A program made the position numbers and the translations under genes. The notes under the pieces were generated by a model. It was given only the letters and a program-made list of their open reading frames with translations, made no database searches and was not told the origin of the DNA. A stretch of 64,000 bases of DNA, taken from positions 96,001-160,000 of the forward strand of contig CAWCNJ010000006.1 in the NCBI GenBank assembly GCA_963796955.1, read 5' to 3'. Positions within the stretch are counted from its first letter, which is position 1; each line of letters starts with the position of its first letter. Below, one piece after another: positions 10,523 to 64,000 of the stretch. This DNA is from Endomicrobiales bacterium. GTDB lineage: Bacteria > Elusimicrobiota > Endomicrobiia > Endomicrobiales > JALOBY01.

Positions 10523-11662
10523 ATGTATTCCAGAATAATTAAACCACCGACGGATAAAAGCTTCTTTTTGTTCGGGCCGAGAGGCACGGGTAAGACAACG
10601 TGGGTAAAGTCTTGCTTCCCTGATGCGTTGTACATTGACCTTCTTGAGGCCGAAATGTATAACGATCTTCTGGCAAACCCGCAACGGCTTGAAAACTTTA
10701 TTCCCAAAGAGTCTAAGAATTGGGTGATAATTGATGAAATACAGCGCGTGCCGGAATTGCTAAATGAAGTACACCGGCTGATCGAAAAATACAAGTACAA
10801 ATTTATACTAACCGGATCGAGCGCACGCAAACTGAGAAAAAAAGGAAATAATCTGTTGGGAGGGCGCGCTCTCTCGTACTCAATGTATCCATTGGCTGCC
10901 GTCGAACTTGGAAAAGATTTTGTTTTGGCAAGCTCGCTGAAATATGGGTTCTTACCAAGCGTCTATCTTGAAAAAGAACCGAAGGCGTATCTTGAAAGTT
11001 ATGTGAAGACGTATTTGGATGAGGAAATACGCCACGAAGGGTTGACTAGAAATTTAGGCGCATTCGCAAGATTTTTAGAAGCCGCCAGCTTTTCACAGGG
11101 ATCAATATTAAGCGTATCCGCTATCGCTCGGGAGTGTGCGGTAGAAAGAAAAGTTGTTGAAAACTATTTTTCCATCCTTGAAGACCTTCTTATCGCCTAC
11201 AAATTGCCTGTTTTTACCAAAAAAGCCAAAAGGCGTATGGTTTCTCATCCAAAATTCTATTTTTTCGACGTAGGTGTATACAGGACACTACGGCCCATGG
11301 GACCATTAGACAGGCCGGAAGAAGTTGAAGGCATTGCACTTGAGACAGTACTGTACCAGCAATTGATCGCGGTTAACGAATCTCTGCGATTGGGCTATTC
11401 AATTTACTACTGGCGGACGGCCAACAACATGGAAGTCGATTTTGTTTTGTATGGCGAAAAGGGAATAATGGCGTTTGAGATCAAAAGAACCGGTAAAGTT
11501 TCGGGCTCAATGCTTTCAGGTTTAAAAGCATTTTTGAAAGACTATCCGATGGCAAAAGCATATTTTGTATATGGCGGAGATAGGTACATGAGGGATGGCA
11601 ATATAGAAATAGTGCCGGTTAACGATATGATAAAAAAGCTGCCATCTGTCCTGCAGCAATAA
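10523..11662 (+). CDS. AAA+ ATPase (AAA_14) with C-terminal DUF4143 domain
   Basis: Walker A GPRGTGKTT, Walker B IIDEIQRVP, LTGSS, LLGGRA, PKFYFFDVG, and YYWRT..MEVDFV...FEIK (PD-(D/E)xK-like). More AT-rich than the flanking genes. Confidence 0.88.
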   Translation: MYSRIIKPPTDKSFFLFGPRGTGKTTWVKSCFPDALYIDLLEAEMYNDLLANPQRLENFIPKESKNWVIIDEIQRVPELLNEVHRLIEKYKYKFILTGSSARKLRKKGNNLLGGRALSYSMYPLAAVELGKDFVLASSLKYGFLPSVYLEKEPKAYLESYVKTYLDEEIRHEGLTRNLGAFARFLEAASFSQGSILSVSAIARECAVERKVVENYFSILEDLLIAYKLPVFTKKAKRRMVSHPKFYFFDVGVYRTLRPMGPLDRPEEVEGIALETVLYQQLIAVNESLRLGYSIYYWRTANNMEVDFVLYGEKGIMAFEIKRTGKVSGSMLSGLKAFLKDYPMAKAYFVYGGDRYMRDGNIEIVPVNDMIKKLPSVLQQ

Positions 11663-11663
11663 G

Positions 11664-11699
11664 CTGCGCAAAATGAAGCTTTCCATACACGACCGGTAG
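11664..11699 (+). repeat. typA 3'-end direct repeat, copy 2 (orphaned [11 protein letters not shown] segment)
   Basis: ctgcgcaaaatgaagctttccatacacgaccggtag; all 4 differences from copy 1 are at third codon positions. Confidence 0.9.
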
Positions 11700-11727
11700 G
11701 CTTGAAAGGATTTTCCAGAATAAAAAC

Positions 11728-11880
11728 AAAAAAACACACACTTGGAATAATTGGTGTGTGTTTTTTGTTGCTTTTTTATTGAAAATTCAGTAAGATTTTG
11801 TGTTGCCAGCCTGAAAATACTGCAAAACGCATAAAAGAATTGATATTTATAGTATTTAACATATAATTTATAGTGACGAA
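11728..11880 (+). promoter_or_regulatory. Conserved upstream module of giant gene 1 (palindrome/terminator plus promoter)
   Basis: AAAACACACAC-N12-GTGTGTGTTTTTT hairpin, TTGAAAATTCAGTAA box, and TTGATA (11840) - 16 nt - TATAAT (11862). Homologous to 48583-48734. Confidence 0.7.
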
Positions 11881-11933
11881 TGAGCGTAACATTGCTCCGA
11901 TTCACGTTTTTTTTATTTTGCATGGGACCTGCA

Positions 11934-14900
11934 ATGCTCGGCCGCTCGATCTCGCGAATCGTACCATTCAAAAGCGCCATGGCCGCGATTATTTTTGCGG
12001 TTATCGCGCTGTTGTTTTTTTCAATAGTTTCCAACGCGGCCCCAAACGCTCCCAGTAACCTGACGCAGTGCAGTTCCACCGGCCTTAGCCTTTCGTCGTT
12101 TACCTGGACCAATTCCACGCTTATCACCTCATCCTTCACGCTGACAACTGCGAGCGTTCACTATCGTATTCAGGTATCAACGGTCACTGATGCAAACGGG
12201 GCGGCTGTTTGGAATAAAGGCTTATTCGTGGATGCTACCTCGGCGGCGTTGCTGCCTGCGGGCACTACCTGGTACGCCTGGACACCGGCCATTCCAGCTT
12301 TCTATTGGTGGCGTGTCTCCTGTTTCGACGGTTCGAATGTGTATTCCTCAACAACTTCGGTTTTGCAAAGCGGTGGCCCGGCGGTGGTTGCCTGGAATAC
12401 GCCCTTCGACCCGAAGTACCGGGAACCCATGCCGGGTGACGGTATCGGCGGCGGCGGCTCCAGTCTTGCCTGGGGCGACTTCGACGGCGACGGGTATCAG
12501 GATCTTGCCATACTTGGCAACAGCAATAGCAGCGGTGACATAACCAAAGTGTTTCCCGGCAAGAGCGACGGTACATTCAACGCGGCGGTAACCTTGCCTT
12601 CGGGGCAAACGTTCAGCTCTGGCGGTGTGGCCTGGGGAGATTTTAACAACGACGGTTTGCTTGACCTGGCCATTGCCGGCAAGAATAGTACTACGGGTAA
12701 TGGCTCAGTGCGCGTGTACCGAAATACCGGAGGCGCCTTCAGCGCCACATTTGTGTCGCCGGAAACCGTGGGATACAGCTTCTCCAATCTGGCCTGGGGC
12801 GACTATGACAATGACGGCTGCCTCAACCTGGTCGTAGCGGGGTGGACCGATAGCTATGCAATCGTGTCGCGGGTATATCACAATAATGGCAATGCCGGGT
12901 TCACCGTCGCCTACAATAATAACTTTGGAGTCGCCTCTACTGATGTCGGTTCTTGTGCCCCCTCGCTTCAGTGGCTGGATGTTGAAAATGATGGCGATCT
13001 GGATCTCGCGATGGCCGGCAACGCGGGCGGCACCTACAGTATGTCAATATACCGCAACCAGAACAGTACCTTTGCGTTCGGCTCGGCCCCGGTCTTCGAA
13101 TACGACCCTGTCTCCGCCGCCGCCTGGGGCGATTTTAACAACGACGGTTTTATGGATTTCGCGGGCGTTGACTCTAATTCCCGGGTAGCTGTTTTCCTCA
13201 ACACCGGTAATTTCACCTTCAATACCGTGTCTCCCATTGTACTGACATCCACTATCAACAATTTCACGAACGTCGCCGCGGGTGACGTTGATAATGACGG
13301 CCTCTCGGACGTATTTGTCGCCGGCAGCACCGGCACGGCATTGTATTACAATCGTAATGGAAGTTTTGTAAATCAACCCACCTTTCCATTCTGGCCGCTG
13401 TATGGTGACGAAAGTATTGCCCTTGCCGATTATAACGCCGATGGCGCCCTGGATGCCGCCTTTGCCGGCGGCGATCTTTTCAGTGCCGACTACCTCAGGG
13501 TTTTTAACGGCAAGCAGGCGAATGCCGCGCCGGTGCCGCCAACTATTTCCACGGTGACATTTAGCTATAGCGCTACCCGAAGCACATTTACCGTTGCCTG
13601 GGCCCCGGGATATTACGACGTAGGCCATTCTTCCAACTCGGTTTATTACAATGTGGAAGTCGCCACATACCCTACTACGCTGCAATCGGATAATAAACGT
13701 GTCGTAAATTCAAACAAGTTCGTGGAGTCCTGGGATTTCGGCAGCCCGAACCTTGGCAGTTACATCCGTCCCGCGGTTTCCACCAACTGGGCCGGTGTTA
13801 AAGGTACCCAGATGGTTGGTTATACGATCGCACCTTCAACAAGTAATTATCTGCTGAACGCCACAACATTCTATTTCCGCGTGCAAACCATCGATTCAGG
13901 CCTAATGCGCAGCGTCTGGTCGTCGGAATATGCCTGCATCGCCAGTTCCTATGTCGTTTTTACTAATCATGCTCCTGACGCACCCGCGAACCTCGTCCAA
14001 CTGGACGGCTCGTTTGTTTCACTCTCGTCTTTCAGCTGGACGAATTCCGGTACGATAATATCATCGTTTACGCTTACCGACCAGGATGCCGGCACTCAGG
14101 TGAAATACCATTTACAGATCACTACCGTCTCAGACTCCGGCCTTGCCACCTGGACCAGTGGTTACTTCCTGAATTATACGTCACCGTTGTTGAACCAGGG
14201 AACCACTACGTATACCTGGCCGGCATTAGCTGCGAATAAATTTTACTGGTGGCAGGTGTGGACGGAAGACGCAGGCGGTTTAGCTTCAACATCAACCTCA
14301 ACTTCACTGTTAAGCGGCGGCCCGGCGGCGCTGGCGTATAAAACGGTGTATGATCCGAACGCAATGGATGTGCTGCCCGGCTGGGGTGTTGGTTACACTA
14401 AAACGGAACTGGCCTGGGGCGATATGGATAACGACGGCTACGCGGACCTGGCCATTGCGGGCGATGGTGAATTCAGAGTATTCAAAAACAACAAAGACGG
14501 AACAATGGATCCCAACTCTATAGCGGTCGACCCTGCCTTGGGTGGCCTTAATACTGTTTCCGTTAAATGGGGGGATTTTAACAACGACGGTAAGCTGGAC
14601 CTGGTAGAAATGGGTGGTTGGTGGTATGGGACTGGATACAATTTACGTGTGTATTATAACAACGGCGCGGGCGGCTTTGATCCAAACTATGAAGAACCGG
14701 TACCCGATTGGGGGCTTGAAGGCGGCTGCGTGGCGCCGGGAGATTATGACAATGATGGAAATCTTGATATCGCTGTTATGGGATACGACGGATCGAACGC
14801 ATATTTTCAGGTATACCGTAACAACGGCGACGGTACTTTTGATCCCGATTACATAGAGCCTCAACCAGGCTGGGGCACCTATGCGGGAACACTTGCCTGG

Positions 14901-17900
14901 GGCGATTATAATAATGACGGAGACCTGGATATAGCGGTACATGGCACTGATAGCTATTTGCGCATATTTAAGAACAATGGCAATGGAAGTTTTGACCCCC
15001 ACCCAATAGAACTCGGTACCAGCGGTGATTGGGAGGCGCTTGCCTGGGGTGATTTTAATAATGACGGTAATCTTGACATATCTGGCCTGGATTCTTCCGA
15101 TTGGTTGTACTTATACACCAATAACGGCGATGGATCTTTTGATGACACGCGGGTAACTATAGACGGGGTAGCAGGTTCTAATAATAATACTTTGTGCGTT
15201 GGCGACTTCGACAATGATGGATACACAGACATAGCGGGATCTTATGGTGTGGGGAATTACCCTTATGTTGATAACAGGGCGTATATTTACCACAACAACA
15301 GCGGCGCAGGAACATTTGCAAAAAGCGAGATATTGCCCGGCTGGGGTGTTTCATTCGGCAGCCTTGCCTTTGCGGATTTTGACAACGACAACGACCTGGA
15401 TCTTGCGGTTTCCGGGCGGGAAAACAACTGCATAGATTATGCGACAGGTGGTTACAGAACATGTATCTACAAGAACAAAGAAGCCCAACTGGGCAACCCC
15501 AACACCCCGCCGACTGCGCCCACCGGCCTTACCGCGCTTTACGCCTACGACGTTAATACCTCAACGCTGACCCTGTGCTGGACGCCGGCGGCTTCTTACT
15601 ACAACATAGAGCTGAGCACATTCCCTACCACGCTTTCGGGCGGCAATTTACAGCTGGCCACCACCGGCCATTACGAAATGCCCTGGAACTTCGGCAGCCC
15701 CAACACCGGCAATTACACACGCCCGCCGTCAAAAACATGGCCCGGCTTGAGCGGCACTAAAGCAGGCCAGCTCTACACCGTGCCGGATTACGACATTGAA
15801 CCCGGCGCAACCTACTATTTCCGCGCACAGGCGATAAATGCCAGCCTGATAAAGGGCCAGTGGTCTTCTGAGTTCTCAATCTGCCCCCAGGGCGCTTTTT
15901 CGCCGAACCCGCCGACAGGCATAAGCCAGTACAAAGAAAACGGTGGTGCTGTTTACCTGAGCTCTTACAGTTGGGTACAGGGTTCCGATATCGTAGTGTC
16001 ATCTTTTACGCTCACATCGCCCAACGCCGGCATGCAGGTACGCTACCGTATACAAATAACGACAGTAACGCTGCCAAATACGGCCGCAGCCGACTGGGGC
16101 CATGGGATACTGGTAGACTACACCTCCGGGTTGTTAACGCAAGGAGCTACAAACTATCACTGGCAGTTGCCGGGCAGTGTTTCAAGCCTGTGCTGGTGGC
16201 GCATAAGCTGTATAGACCAAAACGGTTATAGCTCAGAGCCTGTTCCGGTATTAAATGATGGCGGTGCTGCGATGGTGGCATATAAAACCATTTTCGCGCC
16301 GAAGGCGCTTGACGTGATGCCCGGTTGGGGTGTCGTCTATTATAAAACAGGCCTGGCCTGGGGGGATATGAACAATGACGGCTGGCAGGATCTGGCTGCT
16401 ATAGGCAACAATAATTTTCTGTTGTTTAAAAACAAGAAAGATGGTACCTTTGACCCCATAACGGTTGATCCTGCCTGGTCCGGTGCGGCTACCTCGGCCG
16501 CACTTAAATGGGGGGATTTCAACAACGATGGTAATTTAGACCTTGTAGCGCTGGGCTATACCGGCGCAGGAAATCTGCGGGTGTACTACAACAACGGATC
16601 AGGCGGTTTTAGGTCCAGCTATCAGGAACCGATACCCGGTTGGGGGCTGTACAATGGTGATATAGCCCCCGGTGATTACAATAACGACGGCAACCTTGAC
16701 ATCGCGGTCATTGGAACAGACGGCTCGAACAACTATTTCCGCATATTCCGTAACAAAGGCGATGGGACATTCGATCCAAATCCGATAGAGCCTCAGCCTG
16801 GTTGGGGAACTTATGCGGGAGCGCTTGCCTGGGCCGATTATAACAATGATGGTGATCTTGATATAGCAGTAAAAGGTATAGATTCCGCTCTGCGTATATA
16901 CAAGAACAATGGTGATGGATCGTTTTACTCTCCGATGGATCTCAGTTCGGTGGCGTATGGTGACTGGAACGCAATGGCCTGGGATGATTACAATAACGAC
17001 GGTTACCTTGATCTATTCTGCCAGGATTATAACGGCCTGGATCTTTATCAAAATAAAGGTGATGGGACGTTCAATACGTCGGGTGTGAGTGTATATAACG
17101 GGGCATCAGCAAATACATTTGCGATGTGCATCGGAGATTTTGATAATGATGGATATGCCGATATTGCCGATCTCGGTTCTATCAACGCACATCTTTATCA
17201 TAATAACGGCGGTTCGGGAAGCTTTACCACAAGCCCGCTCAGGCCGGCCTGGGGAGTGCCAAACAACGTCAGCATTGCCTTTGCGGATTTTGATAATGAC
17301 AACGATCTTGATCTGGCGGTGTCCGGGCAAGACAGCACTTCCCAAAATTTATTCTGCATCTTTAGCAATGAAGAAGCCCAGATGGGCAACGCCAACACGG
17401 CGCCGGTGCCGCCTTCTGGCATACAATCGCAGACAGCCTACAACATAACAAAGTCGACGATGATCATAACCTGGCCGCCGGCCCAGTATGACATCGGCAA
17501 ATCTTCATGCACGCTTTCCTATCAGGTGGTTATCGCTACCTGTTCCATGACTCTGGCTGCGGATCAAAAATTAATAGCAGCACCAGGCTCGTTTATTACT
17601 ACATGGGCCGCTGAGGGGGATAGCTTTGGAAACTATAACCGGCCTCCTGTAAAGATATGGGGAACCGATTCAACGCCCAGGCAGGGGTTTGGGTTATGCC
17701 TCAGTACGGCTTCTATTAAAGCTGACACCACTTATTATTACCGGGTGCAAACCATTGACTCCTGTCTTGCCCGCAGTACCTGGTCGGTGGAAGGCATGGT
17801 CTACATGGGTGTGGGCGCGCCCCCCGCTGCGATAACTAACCTTACCGCTCTGAAAGGTTCATCCGGCGGAGAAATTAAATTAAGCTGGAGCTCGCCCGGC

Positions 17901-20900
17901 GCCGACGGCACAGCAAATAATATTATTAACGGCGCCTTTAAAATACGCTATTCCACATACACAACGGGTTCTGCAAATTTCTGGACGGATGCAGCATCCA
18001 ACTGGGTAGATCAAACCAATAAATATCAGATTACAATACCTACTAATTCCATACCAGGCGTAACGCAATCAGCCACGCTTGTCGGCCTTACACCGGGCGG
18101 AACGTATTACGTGCGCGCCTGGGCACGGGATGAAGTTGGCGTAGACAGCACCAGCTGGAACGGCAACTGGTCTGCATTGTCTAACGCAGCTACAGCCTAT
18201 TCGATGTCGGCAACAACGCCGCAGGTGATAAGCGATCTTGTGGCTACCAACAATAGCGCGCTCAGCGCGATAACCTTAACCTGGACAGCTCCGGGAAGCA
18301 ACGGGCAGACCGGCGACCTGAACGCCGGCTCGGCATTTAAGATAGAATACTCGACGGTAAATGTTATCAATACAAACAACTTTGCCGTTATGCAGGCCAC
18401 CATGGCAATACAGGGCGTAACAATTTCAACGGTTACAACGGCAATGAGCAGGCAGACCTATAATATAGGCGGACTTACAAACAACAAAAAGTACTGGTTC
18501 GCTATAGAGACGGAAAACTCCGGCGGTGTATGGTCAGCGTGGTATTCCTCGGCTCCCGAAGACGGTCATACTACCTACAACGTACTCGCAAGCACGGTTT
18601 GCTCATTCACCAATACCCCGCCGACCATATCCGCACTGGAACAACTGGATGGCTCACTGGTTTCCATGACCTCGTTTACATGGACCAACTCGGGAACCAT
18701 TATCTCATCATTTACTATTAGCGATGCTAATTACGGCCAGCTGGTGCATTATAACATTCAAATCACTTCTGTCGTTACAAATAATGGCGTCGATTGGACT
18801 AACATTTTTGCAAGTTCACGTTCAGCGTTAATAAGCCAGGGAACCGTATCCTACACCTGGCCGGCCTTGACTCCAAACGCCTTCTACGCATGGCGAGCAG
18901 GGCGGAGGATAGCTTCGGCCTGACTTCGTCAACTTCCACAGCACTGGTCTCCGGCGGCCTGGCGGTGCTGGCATATAAAACGCCTTTCGATTCAAGGTAC
19001 GTTGAGCCCACACCCGGCTGGGGTTGCGGACATTATGGATCGGCGCTTGCCTGGGGAGACCTTAACGATGACGGCTATCAGGACCTTGCAGTAAGCGGCA
19101 TCATTGGTACGACGCCCTATACCCGTATATATAAAAATAATAAAGACGGCACTTTTAGTGCATATTCCACCCTGCCCGGCGGTGTAGATGCCGGTTGTCC
19201 GGAACTACAGTTCAGCGACTTTAATAACGACGGAAAAATGGACCTTTTGGTTGCAGGCTGGCCAGGCAGCGATCCCGGTATAGAAAGAATTTATCTCGGT
19301 AACGGCGACGGAACGCTCAACCCGGCATACGTTGATGCAATGCCGGGGTTTGGACGGTATTGGGTCTCGGCTAAACTGGGCGATTATGACAATGACGGTA
19401 ACCTGGACATAGCAATAATGGGCGCCGATGATGCAGGGCCGGGGGTTTCAACCTTCAGGATATACCGTAATAACGGTAACGGTGCCTTTAGTCCAAATTA
19501 TATAGAACCTGAAACGGGCTGGGGTCTTTGCACGCAGGCGCCCGGCTGGAATTATGTCGGCGGCCGTCTGCTCTGGGGCGACTACGATAATGACGGCGAT
19601 CTTGACCTGGCCGTTTGCGGCGATGATGTTAACGATAATCAGTTAATGCGCGTATACCATAACAGCGGCAGCGGCAATCATTTTGGCCCGGCGCACGAGT
19701 TGCAGGTAAGCGATATAAACGATATCAGCTGGATAGATTATGATAACAACGGTTATCTGGATATAGCCGCCTTTTCTCAGGCAGCCCAAAAAACCCGGAT
19801 ATACCGCAATAACGGCAATGGCTCATTCAATACTACGCCGCTTGAGATCTTCCCGGGCATATCAATGCAGAATGTGGCGATCGCAGTCGGCGATTATGAC
19901 AATGACGGCAATTCCGATCTGTTCCTTACCGGTAACACCAATACGCAGGGTGATATAGCAGGCGTTTACCGTAACCGCGGTGACGGAACATTCGATCAGT
20001 CCATCGTCTCGCCGCTGCCGCTATGGGGCATAAACGGCTGTGGGTCGATCGCGTTGTCCGACTACAACAATGACGGCGGCCTGGATATGGCCGTTGACGG
20101 CTTCGGCTCAGGCGGCGATCTGAGCCTGCGCGTCTTCAAAAACATGGAAGCACAGCTGGGCAACGCAAACACCGCGCCCGTGCCGCCGGGTACGGCAAAC
20201 ATCAACTTTAATTACAGCGCGTCAAAGAGCACATTTACAATAACATGGCAGCCTTCGCAATATGACATAGGCCATTCGTCTAATTCTGTCTTCTTTAACG
20301 TGGAAGCCTCAACTTCGCCGACTACGCTTTCCACGGACAAAACGCGCATAACAGCCCCCGATCATTTTGTGGAACCCTGGAACTTCGGCAGCTCCAACCT
20401 GGGCAATTTCGTGCGCCCCGCGGTTTCCACTTCTTGGGCCGGAGTGACTGGCACATCAATGCATGGCTTTACCCTGGCGCCCTCGACAAACACTTGGTTG
20501 TTGAACACCACAACATTCTATTTCCGTATCCAAACAATAGATTCCGGCCTTATGCGCAGCACCTGGTCCGCCGAGTTTTCTTGCTTTGCATCTTCAACGT
20601 CGAACTTGGCGCCCAATGCTCCAACGAACCTTGCGCAGCTGGATGGGACGCATGTTTCGCTCTCATCCTTCGGCTGGACGAACTCGGGTACTATAATTTC
20701 ATCGTTCACCCTAACCGACCCAGACGACGGCCAGCAGGTGCGCTTTAACCTGCAGATAACTTCTGTTACCACTAACGGCGCGGCAGATTGGACAAGCATA
20801 TTCGCCAGCACGCGCTCCGCCCTGCTCAACCAGGGAACCACAACCTATAGTTGGCCGACGCTTAACCCGAATGCTTTCTACTGGTGGCGTGCCTGGACGG

Positions 20901-44900: not shown

Positions 44901-45343
44901 CCGTAAATATCGCGCAGGACATTTCCATGTTCTGGCACAGCGGCGTTGAATGGATAAAACTTAACAAATTAACGAATACGAATTCCATGCAAGTGTCGGT
45001 CAGACATCTGGGCAAATTCATGATCAAGCGTTCAATCGCCGCCACCAGTTTCTCAATGACAAAAGTTTTTCCGACGATATTTACCCCTAACGGTGATCAC
45101 CGCAACGATTATGTGGTATTCCAGTATGAAAACCCGAAAGATGACGCCGTTAGAGGAAAAATATATACTCCGGAAGGGGCTTTTGTAAGCAACCTGGTTA
45201 AATCCGATGATAACTCCTCGCTGATCTGGGACGGCACCAGAGACGGCGGCAAGGTAGCGGAGCCTGGTGCGTACGTCTATCAGATAGAGGTGATAGGCTC
45301 CGACGCGAAGGTGATCAACGGGGTAATAATATTGGCGAAATAA
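11934..45343 (+). CDS. Giant (~11,100 aa) secreted FG-GAP/VCBS beta-propeller and Fn3/Ig-like repeat protein with a T9SS type-B-like (CHU_C/FlgD-Ig-like) C-terminal domain; interrupted by a 1-nt frameshift near 18900 (track ORFs 11880-18923 and 18890-45343)
   Basis: Signal peptide ...AIIFAVIALLFFSIVSNA. Eleven clusters of about 7 WGD(F/Y)xNDGxxDLA repeats. C-terminal IFTPNGDHRND...IWDG...PGAYVYQI...GVIILAK. The paralog motif WRAWAEDS is restored by inserting one T at gca^gggcg. The start was chosen by alignment with gene 2. Confidence 0.85.
12372..13402 (+). repeat. ~1.03-kb block almost identical to 57404-58433 (nearly one whole propeller)
   Basis: By eye I found only two differences: an A/G substitution near 12825 (Asn/Asp) and a 1-nt deletion in the gene-2 copy. 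Confidence 0.9.
33857..34161 (+). repeat. ~305-bp near-identical internal repeat (post-propeller linker); second copy at ~38216-38521
   Basis: aacatggaagcccagatgggcaatgccaatac...ccagctgggcc is repeated with about 2 substitutions seen. The antisense ORFs 33770-34096 and 37985-38455 start almost identically. Confidence 0.85.
38675..42500 (+). repeat. 13 tandem 294-297-bp (98-99 aa) Fn3/Ig-like repeats inside giant gene 1
   Basis: Consensus PTVPxLxxPLDNxTTNQMTLxFxW...DxLSGVxxYTLRLSTAPDFSGxxYSS...WYWxVRxxDNAxNYSAWxSTWSVVVDT. Confidence 0.9.
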
Positions 45344-45346
45344 ATT

Positions 45347-47093: not shown

Positions 47094-47199
47094 TTGGATT
47101 GATATATTGTACATGTCAGTTAAATGTTGGCTTGATATTGTTGTCAAAATAGCTTAAACTTGACTTGACTATGTTAACATTAGTGTGTATAATTGTGGT
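47094..47199 (+). promoter_or_regulatory. Sigma70 promoter for a leaderless ATPase mRNA, with three direct repeats 33 bp apart
   Basis: TTGACT (47165-47170), 17-nt spacer, TATAAT (47188-47193), 6 nt, ATG at 47200. Repeats ttggattgat (47094), ttggcttgat (47127) and ttgacttgac (47160). Confidence 0.72.
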
Positions 47200-48522: not shown

Positions 48523-48582
48523 TACCCAAGTAACCTTGAGTACTAAAACGATGGCCGCGTTACGTATGATGGTGCATTGTTT

Positions 48583-48734
48583 AAAAACACACACTTAGAT
48601 TAATTGGTGTGTGTTATTTATTGCTTTATCGTTGAAAATTCAGTAATATTTGTTGTTACCTGCCATACAGACGCCCTTAAACGTCTAAATGTATTGATAT
48701 TCATACGATTCATCTTATAATTTATAGTGAAGAA
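48583..48734 (+). promoter_or_regulatory. Conserved upstream module of giant gene 2
   Basis: AAAAACACACAC-N12-GTGTGTGTT, TTGAAAATTCAGTAA, and TTGATA (48694) - 16 nt - TATAAT (48716) followed by TTATAGTGA. Homologous to 11728-11880. Confidence 0.7.
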
Positions 48735-48787
48735 GTTACTGTATACCTTTTTTACTCATGTATCACTATTTTCGCATGGAGAACGTC

Positions 48788-51700: not shown

Positions 51701-54700
51701 GGTGTAGACAACTGGTGGGGCGGGATATGTACCGTTGATTGCAACAACGACGGTAACCTGGATATAGCCGTCGCAGGTACCAGTGACGGCTTCGCGGGCT
51801 ATGCCAGAATATACAAAGGCAACGGCAACGGGAAATTTAATTCAGCTTTTACCACACCGGACGCGGGTTACAATGGGGGCGACCAGGGGTATGCCTCAAT
51901 GACGTTTGGGGATTATAACCTTGACGGCAACCTGGACGCAGCGGTAGGCGGTGTTGCGGGTTTCAGGGTGGATAAGGGCAATGGCGATGCGACCTTTACC
52001 GATACAACCCTTCAGCCTGACGGCGCCGGCTGGTTTGGCAGCGCCGACGGCGGTGCGGTAATCGCCTGGGCCGATATCAACAACGATGGTAAGCCCGATA
52101 TGGTAATTGGCGGGCTTCAGAATGGCAACGGCGGTAAGTTCAGGCTGGAACTGAACAATGGCAATGGCACGTTCACGTCCAGCGATATCCAGCCCGGCTG
52201 GAACAGTTTCTGCAATGTTGCTCTTGGCGACCTGGACAACGACGGCGATGCGGACGCTGTCGTGTCGAATCAAAATGGTAATGACAGCGGCCACTACTAT
52301 TTGAAAGCCTTCTTTAACAAAACCCATGAAATGGGTATCGCTACCAATGCGCCCGTCCCGCCGGGAAGTCTTACCTACCAGTCTTCATACGCGATAACCG
52401 GTTCCACGGTAATGATAACCTGGCCGGCAGCGCAGTACGACGCAACCGCATCGTCGCGCACGCTTTCTTTCCAGGTGGAAATATCAACGGCTCAAACGAC
52501 GCTTGCATCGAACAAAAAATTGATATCAGCGCCCTCGTCAGCCGGTGCATTCATAAATACCTGGGCGTCTGAAGGCGATGATTATGGAACGTTTTACCGT
52601 CCTGCGGCAAAGGTCTGGGGTACGGATCCCTCGCCGAAATTCGGCATTCAGTTGAATTTAAGCACTGCCACCATCCAGGGCGGAACATCGTACTATTACC
52701 GCATACAAACCATTGATGGCAGTCTTTTGCGCAGTACCTGGTCGGTGGAAGGCACACTGTATATGCCCATGGGCACGGCGCCGGCTGCTATCACCAACCT
52801 TACCGCATTGAAAGGCAACTCCGGTGGCGAGCTGAAACTAAACTGGACCTCCCCCGGCGCGGACGGAACCGCGAACAACATATACGGTGGTGTCTTTAAA
52901 ATACGCTATTCCACCTACACCATCGCATCGGCCGGTTTCTGGACGGATGCGGCATCTAACTGGACGGACCCGTTAAACAAATATCAGATAACGATACCTA
53001 CCAACTCCACGCCGAGCACAACACAGTCAACGACGCTTGTAGGGCTTACCCCAGGCGGGACCTATTACGTCCGTGCCTGGGTGAGGGATGAGGTAGGCGT
53101 AGACAGTACCAGCTGGAACGGTAACTGGTCGGCGTTGTCTAATGCCGCGACCGCGTATGCGATGACGGCGACAACCCCGCAGGTGATAAGCGACCTGGTA
53201 GCCACGAACAATGCGGCTCTGGGCGCCGTTAATCTTGCCTGGACGGCACCCGGCGGTAACGGGCAGACCGGCGACCTGAACGCAGGTTCCGCCTTCAAAA
53301 TTAAATATTCGACGGTGAACGTTATCACGACCGATAATTTTACGACCATGCAGTCTACTATGGCTATCCAGAGTATAACTATTTCAACGGTTGCTACTGC
53401 CATGAGCAGGCAGAGCTACAACGTAGGGGGGCTTACCAACGGCAAAAAATACTGGTTCGCGATCGAAACAGAAAATTCCCAGGCCGCCTGGTCGACATGG
53501 TACTCTTCAGCCACAGGGGACGGTCATACCACCTACAGCATACTGGCAAGCACGATCTGTTCGTACACTAACCATGCGCCGACAATATCCAGCCTGGAAC
53601 AGCTGAACGGTTCAATGGTTTCAATGACTTCGTTTACCTGGATAAATTCCGGCGCTATCATTTCATCGTTCACTATCATCGATACCGACCTGGGCCAGCA
53701 GGTGCGGTTCAATATCCAGATAACGTCAATAACAACTAACGATGCTGCCGATTGGACCAGTATATTCGCCAGCACGCGCTCAGCTTTGACCAGCCAGGGC
53801 ACGTTGAACTATACCTGGCCGGCGTTGAACCCGAATGTGTACTACTGGTGGCGCGCCTGGGCGGAAGATCAATTTGGCTTAACATCAGCTACCTCCACCG
53901 CGCTGGTAAGCGACGGTGCAGCGGTAATTGCCTATAAAACACCGTATGATCCGCATTTTATAGAACCTACCCCCGGCTGGGGAGTAGGATATTGGGGCGG
54001 CGGTACTGCCTGGGGCGACTTTAACGGTGACGGTAATCAGGACATCGCAGTTACCGGCTGCGGCTTTTGGGGCGGGAACGATTACCTCAGGGTTTATTTG
54101 AACAATGGTGACGGCACATTCAGTTCCTCGTATATAGAGCCGCAGATCGGCGTGGGTTTCCGCAGCGGCGCAGTGGCCTGGGGGGATTTTGATAACGATG
54201 GTGATCTGGATCTGGCGGCAACCGGCTCTGTCGACGGTGATGTTACCGGTATACTGAGAGTATACCGGAACAACGGCAATGGAGCTTCATTTAGTACAAC
54301 CTATACGGATGCGCCCGGTTGGGGCGGGTTCTACAGCTCAGTTGCCTGGGGCGATTATGATAACGACGGCAACCTTGATGTAGCTGTAACGGGGACGTTG
54401 GATGGGACGGCAGCTAACGGAAGATTCAGGATATACCATAACACCGGCAACGGGACTTTTGACACGAATTACCTGCAACCCACGGCCAATTGGGGCGTGA
54501 CTTACAGTAACACAACTCCACGTATTGGCTGGGCGGATTATGAAAATGACGGAGACCTGGACATTGCTGTCTGCGGCACTGATATCAGCAGCACGAATGT
54601 TTTGCGTGTATACAAAAACAACGGCGACGGAACGTTCGCCTCCTCCCCTGCTCTCCTGGTCAATGATGTTATTGATTTTACCTGGAGCGACTATGATAAC

Positions 54701-57700
54701 GACGGTTATCTAGACATTATAGGCGTAACCGCAACCGGCAGGGACGTGAGGGTTTTTCCCAATAACCGGAACGGCACTTTAAACGCGTCCCCGGTGATGA
54801 TTCTTCCCGGTCTCAATGTAGATTTTTATGCGCTTTGTGCAGGGGATTATGATAATGATGGCAATGTAGATGTGGTAGTTACGGGCCATGATTTGACCAG
54901 CGATAACGGTTGTCTCAGGCAATACCGCAGCCTGGGTAACGGAACCTTTGATCAGAAGCCTACAAACCTTCTTCCCGGATGGGGGCCGCGTGTTTCAGGT
55001 TCCCTTGCGTTGTCGGACTACAATAACGATGGCGCTCTTGATATTGCGGTTACGGGTTGTTACGATACGGGGTGGACACCCACCTGGTTCCGCATCTTCC
55101 AAAATATGGAAGCCCAACTTGGCAACGCCAACACCGCCCCGGTGCCGCCAACTATTTCCACCGCGACGTTTAGCTATAGCGCCACCAGAAGCACATTTAC
55201 TGTTGCCTGGGCACCGGGATATTACGACGTAGGCCATTCCTCCAACTCGGTTTATTACAATGTGGAAGTCGCCACATATCCTACCACGCTGCAATCGGAC
55301 AATAAACGCATCGTAAATTCAAACAAGTTTGTCCAGACTTGGGATTTCGGCAGCCCCAACCTTGGCAGTTACATTCGCCCCGCGGTTTCCACCAGCTGGG
55401 CCGGTGTTAAAGGCACCCAGATGGTTGGTTATACGATCGCCCCTTCAACAAACAATTATTTGCTTAACGCCACCACCTTCTATTTCCGTGTGCAAACCAT
55501 AGATTCAGGACTTATGCGCAGCACCTGGTCTGCTGAATATTCCTGCCTCGCCTCATCGTTTGTTGCTTCACCATCGGCAGGTATTATGATCGTAGCAGGG
55601 GCAACGGCCAGCAACCGGAACGACTCTGCGGGGACAGCCCTGACTGCCATGTTTGCCCAAGGCGTTCCGGCGGGAGATCTTCTGGTCGCCGCTGTAGCAT
55701 ATGAAGGTAACGGTGCAATTACCGTTGCTGACGGTAAAGGTCAGACCTGGCAGCCGGCGGTCACGAGATATGATTCCGGTAATACTACAACGTGGGCCAT
55801 ATATTACATCTACAACACGCAGGCGCTGTCTTCTACCGCTGAGAAAACCGTAACACTGACGACGGTGTCTGGAACAACGTACCGGTATATGGTGATAACT
55901 GAGTTTTCTGGGGCTCAGGCGAGTTCTGACCCGCTTGATAAAACTACTTCCGGCAACCGGTCTTTTTCTACAGGGGCGAACGGAATATTCACCGATGCCT
56001 CGCCTACCCCGTCGGTCAACGGTGAACTGTTATTTTGCAGTCTTATGCAGGATTCTAACACCCATGTACCGCAAACAGCCGGGACAGATTTTACGATGGT
56101 AACGAACGGTATTGTACCCAATGATAGTATCAGTTCCAACTATCATTTGCATACTGAATACTATGTACAGCCGACCGCTGCCGCTCATCTGGGAACGTAT
56201 ACCTGTTCAGGTTCAGACGCCGATACGTACGCTATAGCGATGGCTACGTTCAAGCCTGCAACAGCCGGCGATACTACTCCCCCTGCGGCGATAACGAACA
56301 TTTCAGCCGTTACCGGTCTCTCGGGCGGCAGTATAAATCTAACTTGGACTGCGCCCGGGGATGACGGCATTTCCGGCGCCATTTCCGGCGGCGCTTTCAA
56401 GATCCGCTACTCGTCCTATACCCCCACCTCTTGGACGGATGCCGCTTCCAACTGGACTGACTACCTGAATAAATACCAGATCACCTTGTCCACCAATGCC
56501 ACACCGGGCGCCTGGCAGGCACGTACTCTTACGGGCTTAACCGAAGGTGTTACCTATTACATCCGCGCCTGGAGCCGCGACGAAGTTGGTGTAGACAGCA
56601 CCAGCTGGAACGGCAACTGGTCGACGTTATCGAACGGGGCGACAGCCTGGGCAACGGTTTCGCCCAAGCCGTCCTGCATAACGGACCTTGTTGCGACAAC
56701 TAACGTTGCCGCGAACGGCATAACCCTTACCTGGACCGCTCCCGGCGATAACGGTCAAACCGGCAGTCTTACGGCCGGCTCCGTATTCAAAATAGAGTAC
56801 TCTACGGTGAACGTTATCAACGGCGCAGATTTTGCATTATTGCCCTCCACCATGGTGATCCAGAGCGTGACGATATCTACAACAACAACTGCCATGAGCC
56901 GGCAGAGCTATACCCTTCCTTCGTTGAGCAATAACACAAAATACTGGTGCGCCATAAAGACCTGCAATGCCGAAGGGGGATGGTCGGTGTGGCAATCATC
57001 CGCAGATGTCGCGGCGTATAACATGCTTGCCGCCACGGTCTGTGTAAACGGGCCGAATAGCCCCCCGAACGCGCCGGCGAACCTGGTGCAATACGACGGC
57101 TCTTTTGTAAATCTCTCGTCGTTCACCTGGACGAATTCAAGCACGATCATCTCATCGTTCACGCTTACCGACCCTGACGCAGGCCAGCAGGTGAAATACC
57201 GTTTACAGATCACCACTGTTTCCAGTAACGGCCTTGCCATCTGGACGAACGGGTATTTTATAGACTATACCTCGCCGCTTTTGAATCAGGGCACCACCAC
57301 TTATTACTGGCCCACGCTGACGGCCGGTAAGTTCTACTGGTGGCGCGTCTGGGCGATAGATGCGGCAAATGCAACATCTTCCACTTCGACCGTGCTCAGC
57401 TCGGGTGGCCCGGCGGTGGTTGCCTGGAATACGCCCTTCGACCCGAAGTACCGGGAACCCATGCCGGGTGACGGTATCGGCGGCGGCGGCTCCAGTCTTG
57501 CCTGGGGCGACTTCGACGGCGACGGGTATCAGGATCTTGCCATACTTGGCAACAGCAATAGCAGCGGTGACATAACCAAAGTGTTTCCCGGCAAGAGCGA
57601 CGGTACATTCAACGCGGCGGTAACCTTGCCTTCGGGGCAAACGTTCAGCTCTGGCGGTGTGGCCTGGGGAGATTTTAACAACGACGGTTTGCTTGACCTG

Positions 57701-60700
57701 GCCATTGCCGGCAAGAATAGTACTACGGGTAATGGCTCAGTGCGCGTGTACCGAAATACCGGAGGCGCCTTCAGCGCCACATTTGTGTCGCCGGAAACCG
57801 TGGGATACAGCTTCTCCAATCTGGCCTGGGGCGACTATGACAATGACGGCTGCCTCGACCTGGTCGTAGCGGGGTGGACCGATAGCTATGCAATCGTGTC
57901 GCGGGTATATCACAATAATGGCAATGCCGGGTTCACCGTCGCCTACAATAATAACTTTGGAGTCGCCTCTACTGATGTCGGTTCTGTGCCCCCTCGCTTC
58001 AGTGGCTGGATGTTGAAAATGATGGCGATCTGGATCTCGCGATGGCCGGCAACGCGGGCGGCACCTACAGTATGTCAATATACCGCAACCAGAACAGTAC
58101 CTTTGCGTTCGGCTCGGCCCCGGTCTTCGAATACGACCCTGTCTCCGCCGCCGCCTGGGGCGATTTTAACAACGACGGTTTTATGGATTTCGCGGGCGTT
58201 GACTCTAATTCCCGGGTAGCTGTTTTCCTCAACACCGGTAATTTCACCTTCAATACCGTGTCTCCCATTGTACTGACATCCACTATCAACAATTTCACGA
58301 ACGTCGCCGCGGGTGACGTTGATAATGACGGCCTCTCGGACGTATTTGTCGCCGGCAGCACCGGCACGGCATTGTATTACAATCGTAATGGAAGTTTTGT
58401 AAATCAACCCACCTTTCCATTCTGGCCGCTGTACGCAGACGAAAGCATTGCCCTTGCCGATTATAACGCCGACGGCGCTTTGGATGCCGCCTTTGCCGGC
58501 GGCGATCTTCTCGGTGCCGACTACTTCAGGGTTTTTAACGGCAAGCAGACGAATACCGCGCCGGTCCCTCCCAGCCCCAGCGTTACGCTTACCTATAGCG
58601 GGGCGGCGGTCAACCGCAGTACCTTTACCGTTACCTGGCCGCCCTCTCAGTATGATACGGGCAATTCTTCCAACTCGCTCTATTACCAGGTTGAGGTTTC
58701 CACTTTCCCGACCGCGCTTTCCGGCGATGCCCTGCGCATAACGACGGGAGGGAGGTACCAGAATCCGTGGAATTTCGGCACGCCCGGCCTGGGTGGTTTT
58801 GTGCGTCCGGCGGTTTCCACTAGCTGGGCCGGCGTAACGGGCAGCCAGATGCAGGGGTTCATGTTCAGCCCCTCAACGGCGACGCTGGCGGCGAGTACCA
58901 GTTTCTACTTCCGCGTGCAGACGATAGACGCGGGCCTTAAGCGCAGTACCTGGTCGGCGGAGTATATGTGCGTTATTGCCACCTACGCGCCGTCCGGCGT
59001 TACCGACCTGACTGCTACTACTAATATCGGCATAAATGGAATATCACTGGCCTGGACGGCGCCGGGCGACCACGCGCTTTCCGGGAATCTTACCAGCGGC
59101 TCGCAGTTCAAGATAGAGTACTCATCCGTCGGAATAATCAATACGGCAAATTTCGACTCTCCGCCCGCGAACCTCGCGGCAACCGCTATCTACATCTCCA
59201 CCGTTACTACGGCGCGCAGCCGCCAGAGTTGGAGCGTGCCGAACCTGCAGAACAATACGGTCTACTGGTTCGCCGTTAAAACCGAGAATAGCGCGGGCCT
59301 GTGGTCGGTGTGGCAGTCGTCCGCGGACGTGGCAACATACAACCTGCAAGCCAGCACCCGCTGTGTTGCTGTTAACCATGCCCCGAACGCGCCGGCGAAC
59401 CTGGTGCAATACGATGGCTCTTTTGTAAGCCTCTCGTCGTTCACCTGGACGAATTCAAGCACGATCATTTCATCCTTCACTCTTACCGACCCGGATGCAG
59501 GCCAGCAGGTGAAATACTGTTTGCAGATCACCACCGTTTCCAGCGCCGGTCTTGCCACTTGGACGAGCGGCTATTTTTGGAATTATACTTCCCCGCTTTT
59601 GAACCAGGGCACAACCACGTATTACTGGCCCACACTGACGGCCGGTAAGTTCTACTGGTGGCGCGTCTGGGCGATAGACGCGGCAAATGCGACATCTTCC
59701 ACTTCTACCGCCCTCAGTTCGGGCGGGGCCGCAGTATTAACCTATAAAACCGATTTCGACCCTAATGGAATACGCATTGTACCCGGCCTCGGTTTATACG
59801 GAAATGACGTTTATAGCCAGCTTGCCCTTGGTGACTTTGACAACAACGGCACCCTTGACCTTGCTGTTACTGGTGAGGATATTAATTCGCTTTTTGATTT
59901 TAGAGTATACTCAGGCAATGGCGATGGAACATTCAACTTCTTGCCTGCACTGCGTAATGATGGTACCTATTTCGCATCGTTGGCATGGGGTGATTACAAT
60001 AATGACGGCGATCTGGATATCGCGCTCAGTGCGGGTAACATAGAAAACACCATAGGACTGTATGTTTACCGTAACAAGGGAAACGGCACATTTGATACTA
60101 CGCCGCTGCAGCCTGCCGGAGCCGGTGTCGGTATAGGCGGCGGGCTTGCCTGGGGAGATTTTAACAACGACGGCTTTTTAGATCTTGCTGCCTCCGGGTG
60201 GATAAATGCAACGACTGAAAAATTCTACATTTACAAAAACAATTGCAACGGCAGCTTCAATACAACCCCCGTTCAGCCTGACAGCGCAATGCTATTTGGC
60301 GGCTACGAAGGTTCGCCCATCAGCTGCGCGGACTTTAACAATGACGGTCTTTTGGATATAAGTGTGTGTGCGGATTATTGGCAGTCCAGGCTTTACAAGA
60401 ATGACGGTGACGGCACATTTACGATAACGAACGTCGGCGTTACGGATGTACCGTACGGCCAGGCCTACGCGTTTGGCGATTATGATAATGACGGCAGCCT
60501 GGACATCGCATCTCCCGGCGGAGTATATCAGAACAACGGTGCCGGATCATTTTCAATGGGGCCAGCCCTTCCGTCTAATGGCGACTATTACTGCCCTTCA
60601 AGCTGGGCGGATTTTAATAATGATGGTAAGCTGGATCTTGTTGAAAGCGGCGGGTTCGATTATGAATATTTGATCGAGCTGACAAACAACGGCAGTAGTG

Positions 60701-63700
60701 GTTTTTCCGGGACTGAAATAATGCCTGGTTTCGGGCTCGGCGATGCGTCATTAGCTGTCGGGGATGTGGATAACGATGGCGATACCGATATTATTGCCAG
60801 TGGCGGTAACGGCGCTGCCAATTTGCTTTTGTTCAAGAATAAAAACAGTGAGATGGGCAATGCCAACATCGCTCCAGTGCCGCCGTCAGGCTTGTCATAC
60901 CAGTCTTCATATTTCATATCAAATTCAACCGTCATTATAACCTGGCCTGCCGCCCAATATGATACCGGCATGTCATCGCGCACATTGTCCTTTCAGGTGG
61001 TTATCGCTTCCGCCCCCATGATGCTTGCCTCTAACCAGTCGCTGATAACATCGCCGGGGGCTTTTATAACCACCTGGGCGGCCGAGGCAGACGGTTTCGG
61101 CACCTTTAACCGCCCCGTGGCAAAGATCTGGGGCTCGGATATATCGCCCAAGTTCGGTTATCAGCTGAATTTAACCACAGCATCTATTACCGGCGACACG
61201 TCGTACTACTACCGCGTGCAGACGATAGACGGAGACCTCAAGCGCAGTACCTGGTCTGCGGAAAGTAAGTTGTATATACCCATGGGGCCTGCGCCGGCAG
61301 CCATTACGAACCTTACAGCGCTTACCGGCGCTTCCGGCGGAGAAATAAAGCTGAGCTGGACGTTCCCTGGCGCGGACGGCACAGCGAACAACCTAGTCGG
61401 CGGCGTATTTAAGATACGCTACTCATCCTACACTACCGGGTCAGCCGGGTTCTGGACCGATGCGGCCTCTAACTGGGTCGATCAGGTCAATAAATATCAG
61501 GTAACCATAGCAACGAATGCCACATTGAGCAAAACGCAATCAGCCACGCTGGTCGGTTTAACTCCCGGCGTAACGTATTATGCCCGCGCCTGGACCCGCG
61601 ACGAGGTTGGCGTTGACAGTACCAGCTGGAACGGTAACTGGTCGGCGTTGTCTAACGGCGCGACCGCCTGGGCGATGACGGCAACATCACCGCAGGTAGT
61701 AAGCGACCTGGTGGCTACGAACAACAGCGCGATAGGCGCCGTTAAGCTTACCTGGACGGCCCCCGGCGGCAACGGGCAGACCGGCGACCTGAACGCAGGT
61801 TCCGCCTTTAAGATAGAATATTCGACGGTCAATGTCATCACCACCAATAACTTTACCGCAATGCAGTCCACCATGGCTATCCAGAGCATAACTATTTCCA
61901 CGGTTACCAGGGCCATGACCACGCAAACCTATAACGTCGGCGGTCTGACGAACAATAAGCAATACTGGTTTGCGATCGAGACGGAAAACTCCCAGGGCAA
62001 CTGGTCTACATGGTATTCCTCCGCCACGGGAGACACACACACTACCTACAATATACTCGCAAGCACCGTTTGTTCCTTCGCCAATCATCAGCCCGCTATA
62101 TCCAATCTGGAACAGTTGAATGGCTCACTGGTCTCCATGACTTCGTTTACCTGGACGAACTCCGGCACGCTTATGTCGTCTTTCACGATCAGCGATGCTG
62201 ATTACGGCCAGCAGGTGCGGTTTGTTGTACAAATAACTTCCGCCACTAACAACGCCGGCGCCGCTAACTGGGCAACGCTATTCCAAACCGCCCGCTCAGG
62301 CCTGATTCCTCAGGGAACAACGACGTATATTTGGCCCGCATTGAACCCGAACGCATTCTACTGGTGGCGGGCGTGGGCGGAAGATTCGTACGGGTTATCC
62401 TCCACCACATCAACGGCGCTCGTCAGCGGCGGCTCGGCCGTGCTCGCCTACAAAACACCGTTCAATCCGGCTTTTATAGAGCCGCAGCCCGGCTGGGGAA
62501 TTGGTTGGCATGGCCCGGCCGTTTCATGGGGAGATTTCAACGGTGACGGTTATCAAGACCTTGCCATCGGCGGTAACGATAGCAACAATCAGTATATGAG
62601 GGTGTACATGAACAACGGCGCGGGGGGCTTTAATTCTTATGTGGAGCCGCAGCCCGGCCACGGTGTGCGTCTGGGGGAGATGCAGTGGGGAGACTTTAAT
62701 AACGACGGAAAACTGGACCTGGCCGTTACCGGTTACGATGGTGATCCAGGACTTTGCCGGGTTTATATAAACGCAGGCAACGGCACATTCAGTGCAAGTT
62801 ATGTGGACGCAACCTCGGGCTGGGGAAGGTATTACGGCAACCTTGCCATGGGAGATTATAACAACGACGGCAACCTGGACCTGGCCGTTATCGGTACCGC
62901 CGACATAAACCCGCTGCGCGTTTTCAGGATATACCGTAATAAAGGCGACGGCACCTTTGATACCAATTTTGTCTCGCCGCAATCAGGCTGGGGTATCAGC
63001 GGTGATGACAGTAACAGCACGGATTATACCCGTGTGGCCTGGGGTGACTTTGAGAACGACGGCGACCTGGATATAGCCACTTGCGGTATTGATACCAACA
63101 ACACGCAGGTTATGCGCGTTTACAAAAATAACGGGGACGGTTCCTTTAATTCGACTGCGGCTTTGATAACGAACACCGTCTATGATCTGGCCTGGGGCGA
63201 TTACGATAACGACGGCTTTCTGGATGTTATTGCCGCATCGGCAACGACCATCTGCGCCTTCCGAAATAACGGCAACGGCACATTGAACGCAACGCCGGTA
63301 AATATACTGGGGAATCTTAACATTGCCAACACCAGGATATCCCTGGGAGATTATGATAACGACGGCAATATCGATATAGCTGCTACCGGCCAGGATATCG
63401 CGTCGGGTCAAGGTATGCTGCGGTTTTACCACAGCCTCGGCAACGGTAACTTCGATCAGTCCCCTGTGAATATACTGCCAGGGTGGGGAATGTACCAATG
63501 CGGGGCGATGGCGCTGGCGGATTATGACAATGACGGAGGTATTGATATCGCTGTAGCCGGCCAGGGAAGCGGAACGGCCACCGATTGTTATCTGCGCGTC
63601 TTCAATGATATGCAGGCACAGCTCGGGAACGCAAATACTGCGCCGACGGCGCCGGCCATATCCAGTATGACCTTCAGCTACAGTGCGCCACAGAGCACTT

Positions 63701-64000
63701 TCACTATAACCTGGCTGCCCGGCCAGTACGATGTAAGCCATTCATCCAATTCAGTTTATTATGAGCTGGCAGTTTCAACATTTTCCACAAGCCTTTCTGC
63801 CGACAGTAAACGGCTTACGACTGGCGGCTGCTACCAGTCTCCCTGGAATTTCGGAACCCCGAACCTGGGCAGTTTCATCCGTCCCGCTGTCTCCACCAAC
63901 TGGGCAGGCGTTAAGGGCACCCAGATGGTTGGCTATACCATTACGCCCTCAACAAATGATTATCTGCTGAACGCCACAACGTTCTATTTCCGAGTTCAGA
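48788..64000 (+). CDS. Second giant FG-GAP/Fn3-like secreted protein (>5,000 aa, runs off the right edge); 1-nt frameshift near 57985
   Basis: Signal peptide homologous to gene 1 (AIIFAVAALLFLPSVSMA). The track ORF 48758-58219 leaves the paralog frame at GS^VPPRF. In the new frame the repeats continue to 64000 with no stop that I could see (...YLLNATTFYFRVQ). Six propeller modules lie in the window. Confidence 0.85.
57404..58433 (+). repeat. Copy of 12372-13402 inside giant gene 2
   Basis: Sequence identity seen directly; the small ORFs in the track are also duplicated (12497-12787 = 57529-57819 and 13034-13336 = 58065-58367). Confidence 0.9.

Follow-up and report, generated by a model that had tools for sequence, protein, structure and literature searches.

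Type IX secretion system (T9SS) cargo that carries a C-terminal domain (CTD) of type B uses a cognate shuttle encoded directly downstream, as in the SprB-SprF and Fjoh_3952-Fjoh_3951 pairs of Flavobacterium johnsoniae (PMC12618676), and translocon release in this bacterium depends on the GldLM motor (PMC10994853). Type IX secretion has been called specific to the Bacteroidetes or to the Fibrobacteres-Chlorobi-Bacteroidetes (FCB) group (PMC7463736, PMC9170169). Reduced sets that contain Sov/SprA and PorV without PorK, PorL, PorM, and PorN have been described for Bacteroidetes "Incertae sedis" (PMC7323717), and one proposal holds that export drew its power from an ancestral gliding track (PMC12635249). 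The Elr pilus follows a logic of tip, pilin, chaperone, and donor-only base and is reported to be confined to Bacillota (bioRxiv 10.64898/2026.10.17.759780). Very large genes have been noted previously in Elusimicrobiota (bioRxiv 10.1101/2023.11.21.568195). Here we describe a 64,000-nt stretch of a genome assigned to this phylum (the window; positions 96001 to 160000 of contig C6, where C numbers denote the contigs of this genome and features beyond the window end, C6:160000, are given in contig coordinates). It carries two related giant signal-peptide genes in tandem, which, like all other features given below with coordinates in the window or on C6 downstream of it, lie on the + strand unless only a region is named. 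On balance, we consider it probable that a single type-IX-like anchor serves the two giants, whose FG-GAP and Fn3 modules are the same, in two ways, namely, fused to the adhesin in giant 1 and split from it in giant 2. The likely export route of both is a type-IX-like pore without a recognizable type IX motor.

Giant 1 (11880-45343; 33,464 nt, approximately 11,150 amino acids) was assembled in two frames that meet near 18890-18900. The first frame, of 2,347 residues (11880-18923), contains the signal peptide, FG-GAP repeat units, and Fn3-like domains, and the second, of 8,817 residues (18890-45343), contains further FG-GAP units, a nonrepeat insert, 13 tandem immunoglobulin (Ig)/Fn3-like repeats, and the anchor region. 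Provided that the frame change is an error, the computed mass is 1.19 MDa, in line with the adhesin of about 1.2 MDa proposed in an earlier reading of the DNA (the original prediction). Both giants have a signal-peptide-like N terminus and combine Fn3-like domains with FG-GAP units (10 in giant 1 and 9 in giant 2, from a motif count of the unit ends), and four unique stretches of the giants had no match in Pfam. The C terminus of giant 1 reads FTPNGDHRND...WDG...GAYVY, as had been described, and the segment at 45071-45328 matched both CHU_C (PF13585; 29.6 bits, above the cutoff of 27) and, under its cutoff, TIGR04131, by which it is annotated as a T9SS type-B-like CTD; the profile of this CTD family also matches the C terminus of GhpA and FlgD-like domains. 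After a gap of 3 bp follows the gene for a 565-residue outer membrane barrel of the PorV/PorP family (45347-47044), in which the barrel extends to about 46285 and is followed by a C-terminal tetratricopeptide repeat (TPR) arm. The barrel family profile matches F. johnsoniae PorV (6h3i_F; E 1.2e-6), and NF033709 is matched by each of the 30 family members that were aligned, TIGR03519 (PorP/SprF) by 18 of them as well. The gap and the barrel gene of the original prediction stood, with the caveat that the barrel scores closer to PorV/PorQ than to PorP/SprF. Searches of the giant 1 C terminus with the CHU_C and TIGR04131 models and of 45347-47044 with the PorV model returned matches, some of them under the cutoff.

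Giant 2 (48758 to C6:168367; 23,610 nt, approximately 7,870 amino acids) is distributed over three frames of 3,153, 3,531, and 1,238 residues. The first open reading frame (48758-58219) contains a signal peptide and FG-GAP units, and the true frame is left near 57985; the second (58042-64000 in the window) runs past the window end and changes again approximately 4.6 kb beyond it. The original prediction had raised the question of whether this gene also ends in a CTD followed by a barrel gene, and this is not the case: there is no CTD at its end and no barrel gene directly behind it. Instead, the last 143 residues of giant 2 form a pilin-like acceptor domain (C6:167936-168364). Downstream are three genes for related pilin-like proteins of 190 to 192 residues (C6:168523-170297), the gene for a 308-residue protein annotated from its fold model as a putative PapD-like chaperone (C6:170311-171237), a gene for a base protein of 633 residues with a putative donor strand, Fn3, and a CTD (C6:171302-173203), and, behind it, a second barrel gene (C6:173207-174904). 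Residues 47 to 633 of the base protein share 58% identity (blastp) with the last 590 residues of giant 1 (43574-45343), which would be its equivalent in cis, minus the donor strand; all that the base has beyond this tail is a signal peptide and a short N terminus that resembles the N-terminal extension of the pilins. The two barrels are 99.3% identical. Surface adhesion is the likely function of both giants, with giant 1 likely being an adhesin fused to its anchor and giant 2, according to the models described below, likely being mounted on a pilus by way of the same anchor.

The gene for the chaperone was detected in 41 of 151 genomes of the phylum, and its protein has 619 relatives at 50% clustering. 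From 40 positive relatives, we fetched 20 chaperone loci, picked among the best matches, of which 19 contained a pilin, 18 a CTD protein and a barrel, and 17 all three; a larger protein that ends in a pilin domain was present in 11. The N-terminal extension was found in each of 30 free pilins and was absent from each of 12 aligned tip domains, and 15 of 17 base N termini resembled this extension above the 95th percentile of control 16-mers. In the model of the pilin (predicted local distance difference test [pLDDT] score, 83.9), residues 1 to 16 lie outside the sheets, and the best Foldseek rows were the TasA fibre, CfaB, and FimG. The chaperone, which had no match in Pfam and no sequence match to PapD-like chaperones, was modeled as two tandem PapD-N-like domains, with Z scores of 10 to 11.6 to YadV, CsuC, and FimC. 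A complex of the giant 2 acceptor domain with the base N terminus was predicted with a score of 0.74, compared with 0.01 for the best of three controls; of 157 solved complexes, 116 reach the mark applied to such scores, as do 2 of 215 mismatched pairs. Contacts agreed by at least 85% between runs, the pLDDT of the partner was at least 86, and the predicted interface consists of base residues 1 to 14, which the model places between the acceptor's first strand and its last. The sequence pattern in the relatives, the pilin model, and the predicted complex thus support a donor-strand logic, in which the subunits are predicted to have an incomplete Ig fold with an N-terminal donor strand, the tip to be acceptor only, and the base to be donor only. 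Behind the pilus operon, nine loci of relatives encode CTD-only mini-proteins of 120 to 140 residues, mostly directly before a barrel gene.

This module can be compared with two kinds of described fibres. With the Elr/WxL pilus described in Enterococcus faecalis (tip, ElrA; pilins, ElrC/D; chaperone, ElrE; base, ElrB; same preprint as above), it shares a tip with an acceptor and no donor strand, pilins with an N-terminal extension, a donor-only base, and the lack of an usher, and the chaperone model also resembles WxLIP (Z 11.4). However, the cell is diderm here, the anchor consists of a CTD and an outer membrane barrel instead of LPxTG and a sortase, and the chaperone has no C-terminal membrane anchor. 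Membership in the WxL/Elr group would imply a WxL domain, a DUF916/DUF3324 membrane chaperone, and an LPxTG base, whereas in this locus the base ends in a CTD, the chaperone is without a Pfam match, and none of 45 aligned members had a WxL match in Pfam, the only lead being one of 0.84 in the Atlas. Chaperone-usher pili (FimH/FimG, CfaB, and Csu) and TasA fibres have in common with the module an Ig-like subunit with a free N-terminal extension, a predicted PapD-like chaperone fold, and an adhesin with a C-terminal pilin domain. Unlike in chaperone-usher pili, the chaperone here has two tandem PapD-N-like domains, the tip comprises thousands of residues, the base bears a secretion tag, and no outer membrane usher (PF00577) was found in this genome in a search in which the Escherichia coli control matched. 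Judged by its genes, the system resembles type B T9SS export but is without a recognizable motor or sortase, and it resembles a donor-strand pilus but is without usher, WxL, and sortase anchor.

The assembly of this genome amounts to 2.10 Mb in 11 contigs and is 81.5% complete. As anticipated by the T9SS-like route of the original prediction, it contains an SprA-like gene (C8:81443-86905; 1,820 residues). A profile of 24 homologues matched F. johnsoniae SprA (6h3i_A; E 7e-32), and Atlas neighbors of the protein have SprA_N; on these grounds, the protein is an SprA homologue. A single-sequence search for its relatives in named genomes found none, whereas an alignment-based search found 80 named loci, namely, 67 from Elusimicrobiota, 8 from Clostridia, 1 from Ignavibacteria, and 4 labeled only "bacterium." The ten closest (45 to 52% identity) all belong to Elusimicrobiota, three of them to an "Endomicrobiales bacterium," and Elusimicrobiota also form the majority in the pilin Atlas clusters. 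According to these neighbors, the kinship tables, and the Atlas taxa, the host is a member of Elusimicrobiota; its order-level placement is inferred. The nine records labeled Clostridia or Ignavibacteria, at 32 to 42% identity, are either mislabeled or point to a wider range. The expectation of a probably non-Bacteroidota, Elusimicrobiota-like host was therefore borne out. Neither observation that would have refuted the original prediction was made: CTD and barrel have profile matches, and the genome is not that of an ordinary member of Bacteroidota or Chlorobiota with a canonical T9SS. Among 201 genomes of the phylum, 180 contain an SprA-like gene. The gene lies head to head with lptF/lptG (region C8:76115-87603 in this genome) and, in many relatives, upstream of a gene for a ComF-like protein; in this genome, a barrel and a CTD-tagged M6 protease are encoded 2.3 kb from it.

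The pairing of CTD and barrel genes, read for giant 1 in the original prediction as a dedicated export pair, is far more frequent than the background. We identified 22 CTD genes in this genome with our own profile; 11 of them have a barrel gene no more than 13 bp downstream, and two more have one directly upstream. As a background, a PorV-like gene lies directly downstream of 17 of 1,531 genes overall, a figure that includes most of the 11. Of 29 barrel loci in relatives, three were dropped for having no flank; in 23 of the other 26, a CTD gene ends no more than 500 bp upstream. The PorV family has 30 matches in approximately 24 genes of this genome, of which seven single matches and one split match are over the cutoff. 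One operon (C2:70510-82293) encodes two CTD proteins, a PorP/SprF-positive barrel, a CBM30/CBM11 protein, and a protein of 1,727 residues, and four PorV-like genes, none with a CTD gene directly upstream, are part of a polysaccharide biosynthesis cluster (C11:69928-102854).

Several other components of the T9SS were not detected. The original prediction had pointed to PorK, PorL, PorM, and PorN as components that a T9SS-like host might encode, and GldL, GldM, and GldN all went undetected: GldL had no match in this genome; GldM gave one fragment (E 0.008) here and no match in 151 genomes of the phylum at 1e-4, in searches in which no positive control matched; and GldN had no match in 101 genomes, again with no control matched. 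The PorU-type C25 peptidase (PF01364) had no match in this genome and was found in 2 of 101 genomes of the phylum, and TpsB/ShlB gave no match in this genome in a search whose control did not match either. In comparison with T9SS type B export of the Bacteroidota, with its PorP/SprF shuttle and SprA-PorV translocon (6H3I; PMC12618676; PMC10994853), the shared elements are thus a Sec signal peptide, a type-B-like CTD, a shuttle barrel encoded downstream, huge adhesin-like cargo, and an SprA homologue. The differences are the phylum, a barrel that is nearer to PorV/PorQ and has a TPR arm, an SprA-like protein of 1,820 instead of 2,403 residues, the failure to find GldL, GldM, GldN, and PorU, and a CTD that a donor-strand base is predicted to be able to provide in trans. 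A set without motor has a precedent, since the Incertae sedis sets lack PorK to PorN (PMC7323717). However, those sets are reported to keep PorU, PorZ, and PorQ and are found within the Bacteroidetes as then defined.

From these data, we propose the following route. The giants, as their signal peptides suggest, would be exported to the periplasm by Sec. There, the PapD-like chaperone is predicted to prime the acceptor domain of giant 2 and the pilins, which would be joined by donor-strand exchange into a chain that runs from the tip through the pilins to the base. By analogy with type B cargo of the Bacteroidota, the CTD, that of giant 1 or that of the base, would then dock on its cognate barrel in the SprA-like translocon and leave with it. 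The CTD would not be cleaved, because no PorU was found, and the barrel may remain as the surface anchor. How the chain is extracted is the weakest step. The dependence of translocon release on GldLM in F. johnsoniae (PMC10994853) implies that a motor-less version needs another energy source, and the TPR arm of the barrel may couple to an orphan rotor. Genes for a FliF-FliG fusion, MotA, and two MotB proteins, candidates for such a rotor, lie at C6:179161-182817; directly upstream of them is the gene for a TolB-like PD40 propeller and Fn3 protein (C6:177596-179167). FlhA had no match in this genome, and each of its three FliF-FliG fusions has a gene for a long PorV-like barrel no farther than approximately 4.3 kb away; a fusion and a long barrel are paired within 10 kb in at least 18 of the 36 genomes in which both were found, as judged by eye from the listed rows. 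Tentatively, and with somewhat less than even confidence, we extend the fused-versus-split reading of the tandem locus to a motor-less type-IX-like export of Elusimicrobiota, in which a secretion tag is lent in trans to a chaperone-assembled, usher-less donor-strand pilus that leaves the cell and is anchored by way of the CTD of its base and a dedicated barrel and carries a tagless adhesin of 0.8 MDa, and in which a flagellum-free FliF-FliG/MotAB rotor may pull the TPR arm in place of GldLM.

A number of observations weigh against these readings. Export, binding, and fibre are predictions from genes and models, and both giants are frameshifted as assembled. As to the type-IX-like parts, the CTD of giant 1 scored 26.2 to 28.7 bits (E 1e-6) with TIGR04131, below the cutoff of 35, and the matches of the CTD profile to C5a peptidase and FlgD Ig-like domains are stronger than those to any CTD from a T9SS. 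The window barrel stayed below the cutoff of NF033709 (PorV_fam; E 7.8e-17) and has the C-terminal TPRs. The SprA-like protein, besides being shorter than SprA, matched TIGR04189 in pieces far under the cutoff (E 9e-16 to 0.02), and its single sequence had no match in the Protein Data Bank. As to the pilus, no Foldseek match of the pilin had an E value under 0.001, and its best Z score (7.4) was to a hydrolase domain; the chaperone fold is equally close to the nonchaperone ASH/HYDIN domains; the start sites used in the comparison of base N termini were chosen by eye, with one further base left out of that alignment; and the complex was made with our own alignments, so that its pass may stem from likeness to solved donor-strand pairs. 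Gene absences are less firm in an assembly of this completeness, very divergent forms of GldM could be missed by searches without a matching control, and the need of F. johnsoniae for GldLM in release speaks against a motor-less route (PMC10994853). The FliF-FliG fusion was found at this threshold in 1 of 44 genomes of one family (f2) and in none of 45 of another (f19), families in which SprA is kept (46 of 64 and 56 of 58, respectively), and the orphan rotor was not found in 5 of 41 chaperone-positive genomes. As a universal energizer of SprA, the rotor is ruled out by this distribution; it is retained as a candidate in the case of the TPR-armed barrels only.

This genome has two secretin genes that exceed the cutoff and offer an alternative exit. 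The CTD-barrel pair might be an anchor only, with cargo and pilus subunits leaving by a secretin/type II-like system or by the barrel, the fibre being built outside, and the SprA-like pore serving, for instance, envelope or lipopolysaccharide work. Such a division of labor would agree with the location of the SprA-like gene beside lptF/lptG and not beside these adhesins, with the persistence of SprA-like genes in families in which searches for this kind of barrel, for the chaperone, and for the orphan rotor mostly found nothing, and with the PorV-like genes on C11 that have no CTD gene directly upstream. We nevertheless regard it as unlikely, since SprA, PorV-like barrels, and CTDs co-occur, the barrel and CTD-tagged M6 protease lie close to the SprA-like gene, and we know of no function of SprA besides the export of CTD cargo. 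Still less probable, in our view, is that the small proteins are one-to-one linkers or periplasmic folding aids and that giant 2 is a split giant 1 joined to its base by a single donor strand. The complex of giant 2 and base was predicted well without any pilin, and in 1 of the 20 loci the fetched stretch contains a chaperone, a base, and a barrel without any pilin; yet free pilins, often present in two or three copies, have both the extension and the acceptor domain, they occur in eight fetched loci in which no tip protein was seen, and the fold neighbors of the pilin include many fibre subunits.

We attach equally little probability to the view that the giant genes are decaying or phase variable, in which case the frameshifts would be real, only truncated N-terminal pieces would be made, and the anchors would serve other cargo. 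The giants show three frame changes in 57 kb, and the first, the only one examined in reads, had no read cover (one DNA run, share 0.07). However, among 57 conserved genes (66 kb) elsewhere in the assembly, five, counted without one-by-one inspection, are also frameshifted, or about one per 13 kb. The break at 57985 corresponds to one missing base relative to an intact copy at 12935 in giant 1, located in a segment of 98.8% identity, no stops interrupt the frames that stay open over 26 kb and 10 kb, and neither break in the window lies in a long homopolymer tract. Because conserved genes are split at a similar rate and the 57985 site has an intact copy, we take the frameshifts to be probably assembly errors. 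The segment in question, of 1.16 kb (12372-13534 and 57404-58565), stands out from other aligned segments of the giants, which are 75 to 90% identical, and together with the near-identical barrels it suggests recent module shuffling or gene conversion.

If the preferred reading, of one type-IX-like anchor used fused and split, is correct, the presence throughout Elusimicrobiota of an SprA, PorV, and CTD core that lacks GldLM would uncouple pore and gliding motor and put the gliding-track proposal to the test, and a pilus that leaves a double-membraned cell without an usher on a borrowed secretion tag would represent a new assembly route. A literature search, with most subscription papers and supplements outside its reach, found no report of a T9SS or of such a pilus in Elusimicrobiota. 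What is new here is the comparison of fused and split forms on one near-identical anchor; the locus lends itself to a direct test of the idea, since one copy of this anchor is part of an adhesin and the other belongs to a donor-strand base of its own.

The original prediction had also described a unit of ATPase, shared promoter module, and giant gene that occurs twice, of which the module and the giants are indeed repeated, each giant having an ATPase gene and a copy of the module in front of it. The two copies of the module, of approximately 150 bp (11730-11880 and 48583-48734), are homologous (78% identity; E 3e-29) and consist of an inverted repeat with a T-run followed by an AT-rich promoter-like stretch, from which a promoter-like function may be inferred. 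They open (11730-11775 and 48583-48625) with the inverted repeat ACACACAC ... GTGTGTGT, followed by T-runs, which could be a terminator of the ATPase gene or an operator. Rfam gave no match at gathering scores, and a riboswitch was therefore dropped as a candidate. The ATPases (10523-11662 and 47185-48522), both assigned by Pfam to AAA_14/DUF4143, are not copies, with 28% identity over only 132 residues; being merely distant relatives of one another, they are bystanders outside the export system, and a role as export motor was ruled out. Elsewhere in the window, a FecR-domain protein (4017-4838) is followed by an exported-looking protein of 468 residues without a Pfam match (4768-6174). Further giant genes, often frameshifted and with 2,300 to 6,900 residues per frame, are found at C4:114232-167995, C8:303744-343339, and C6:1-41734 and on C3, C5, and C7; some of these clusters end in a CTD gene and a barrel gene, whereas others, which differ in type, lack such an ending.

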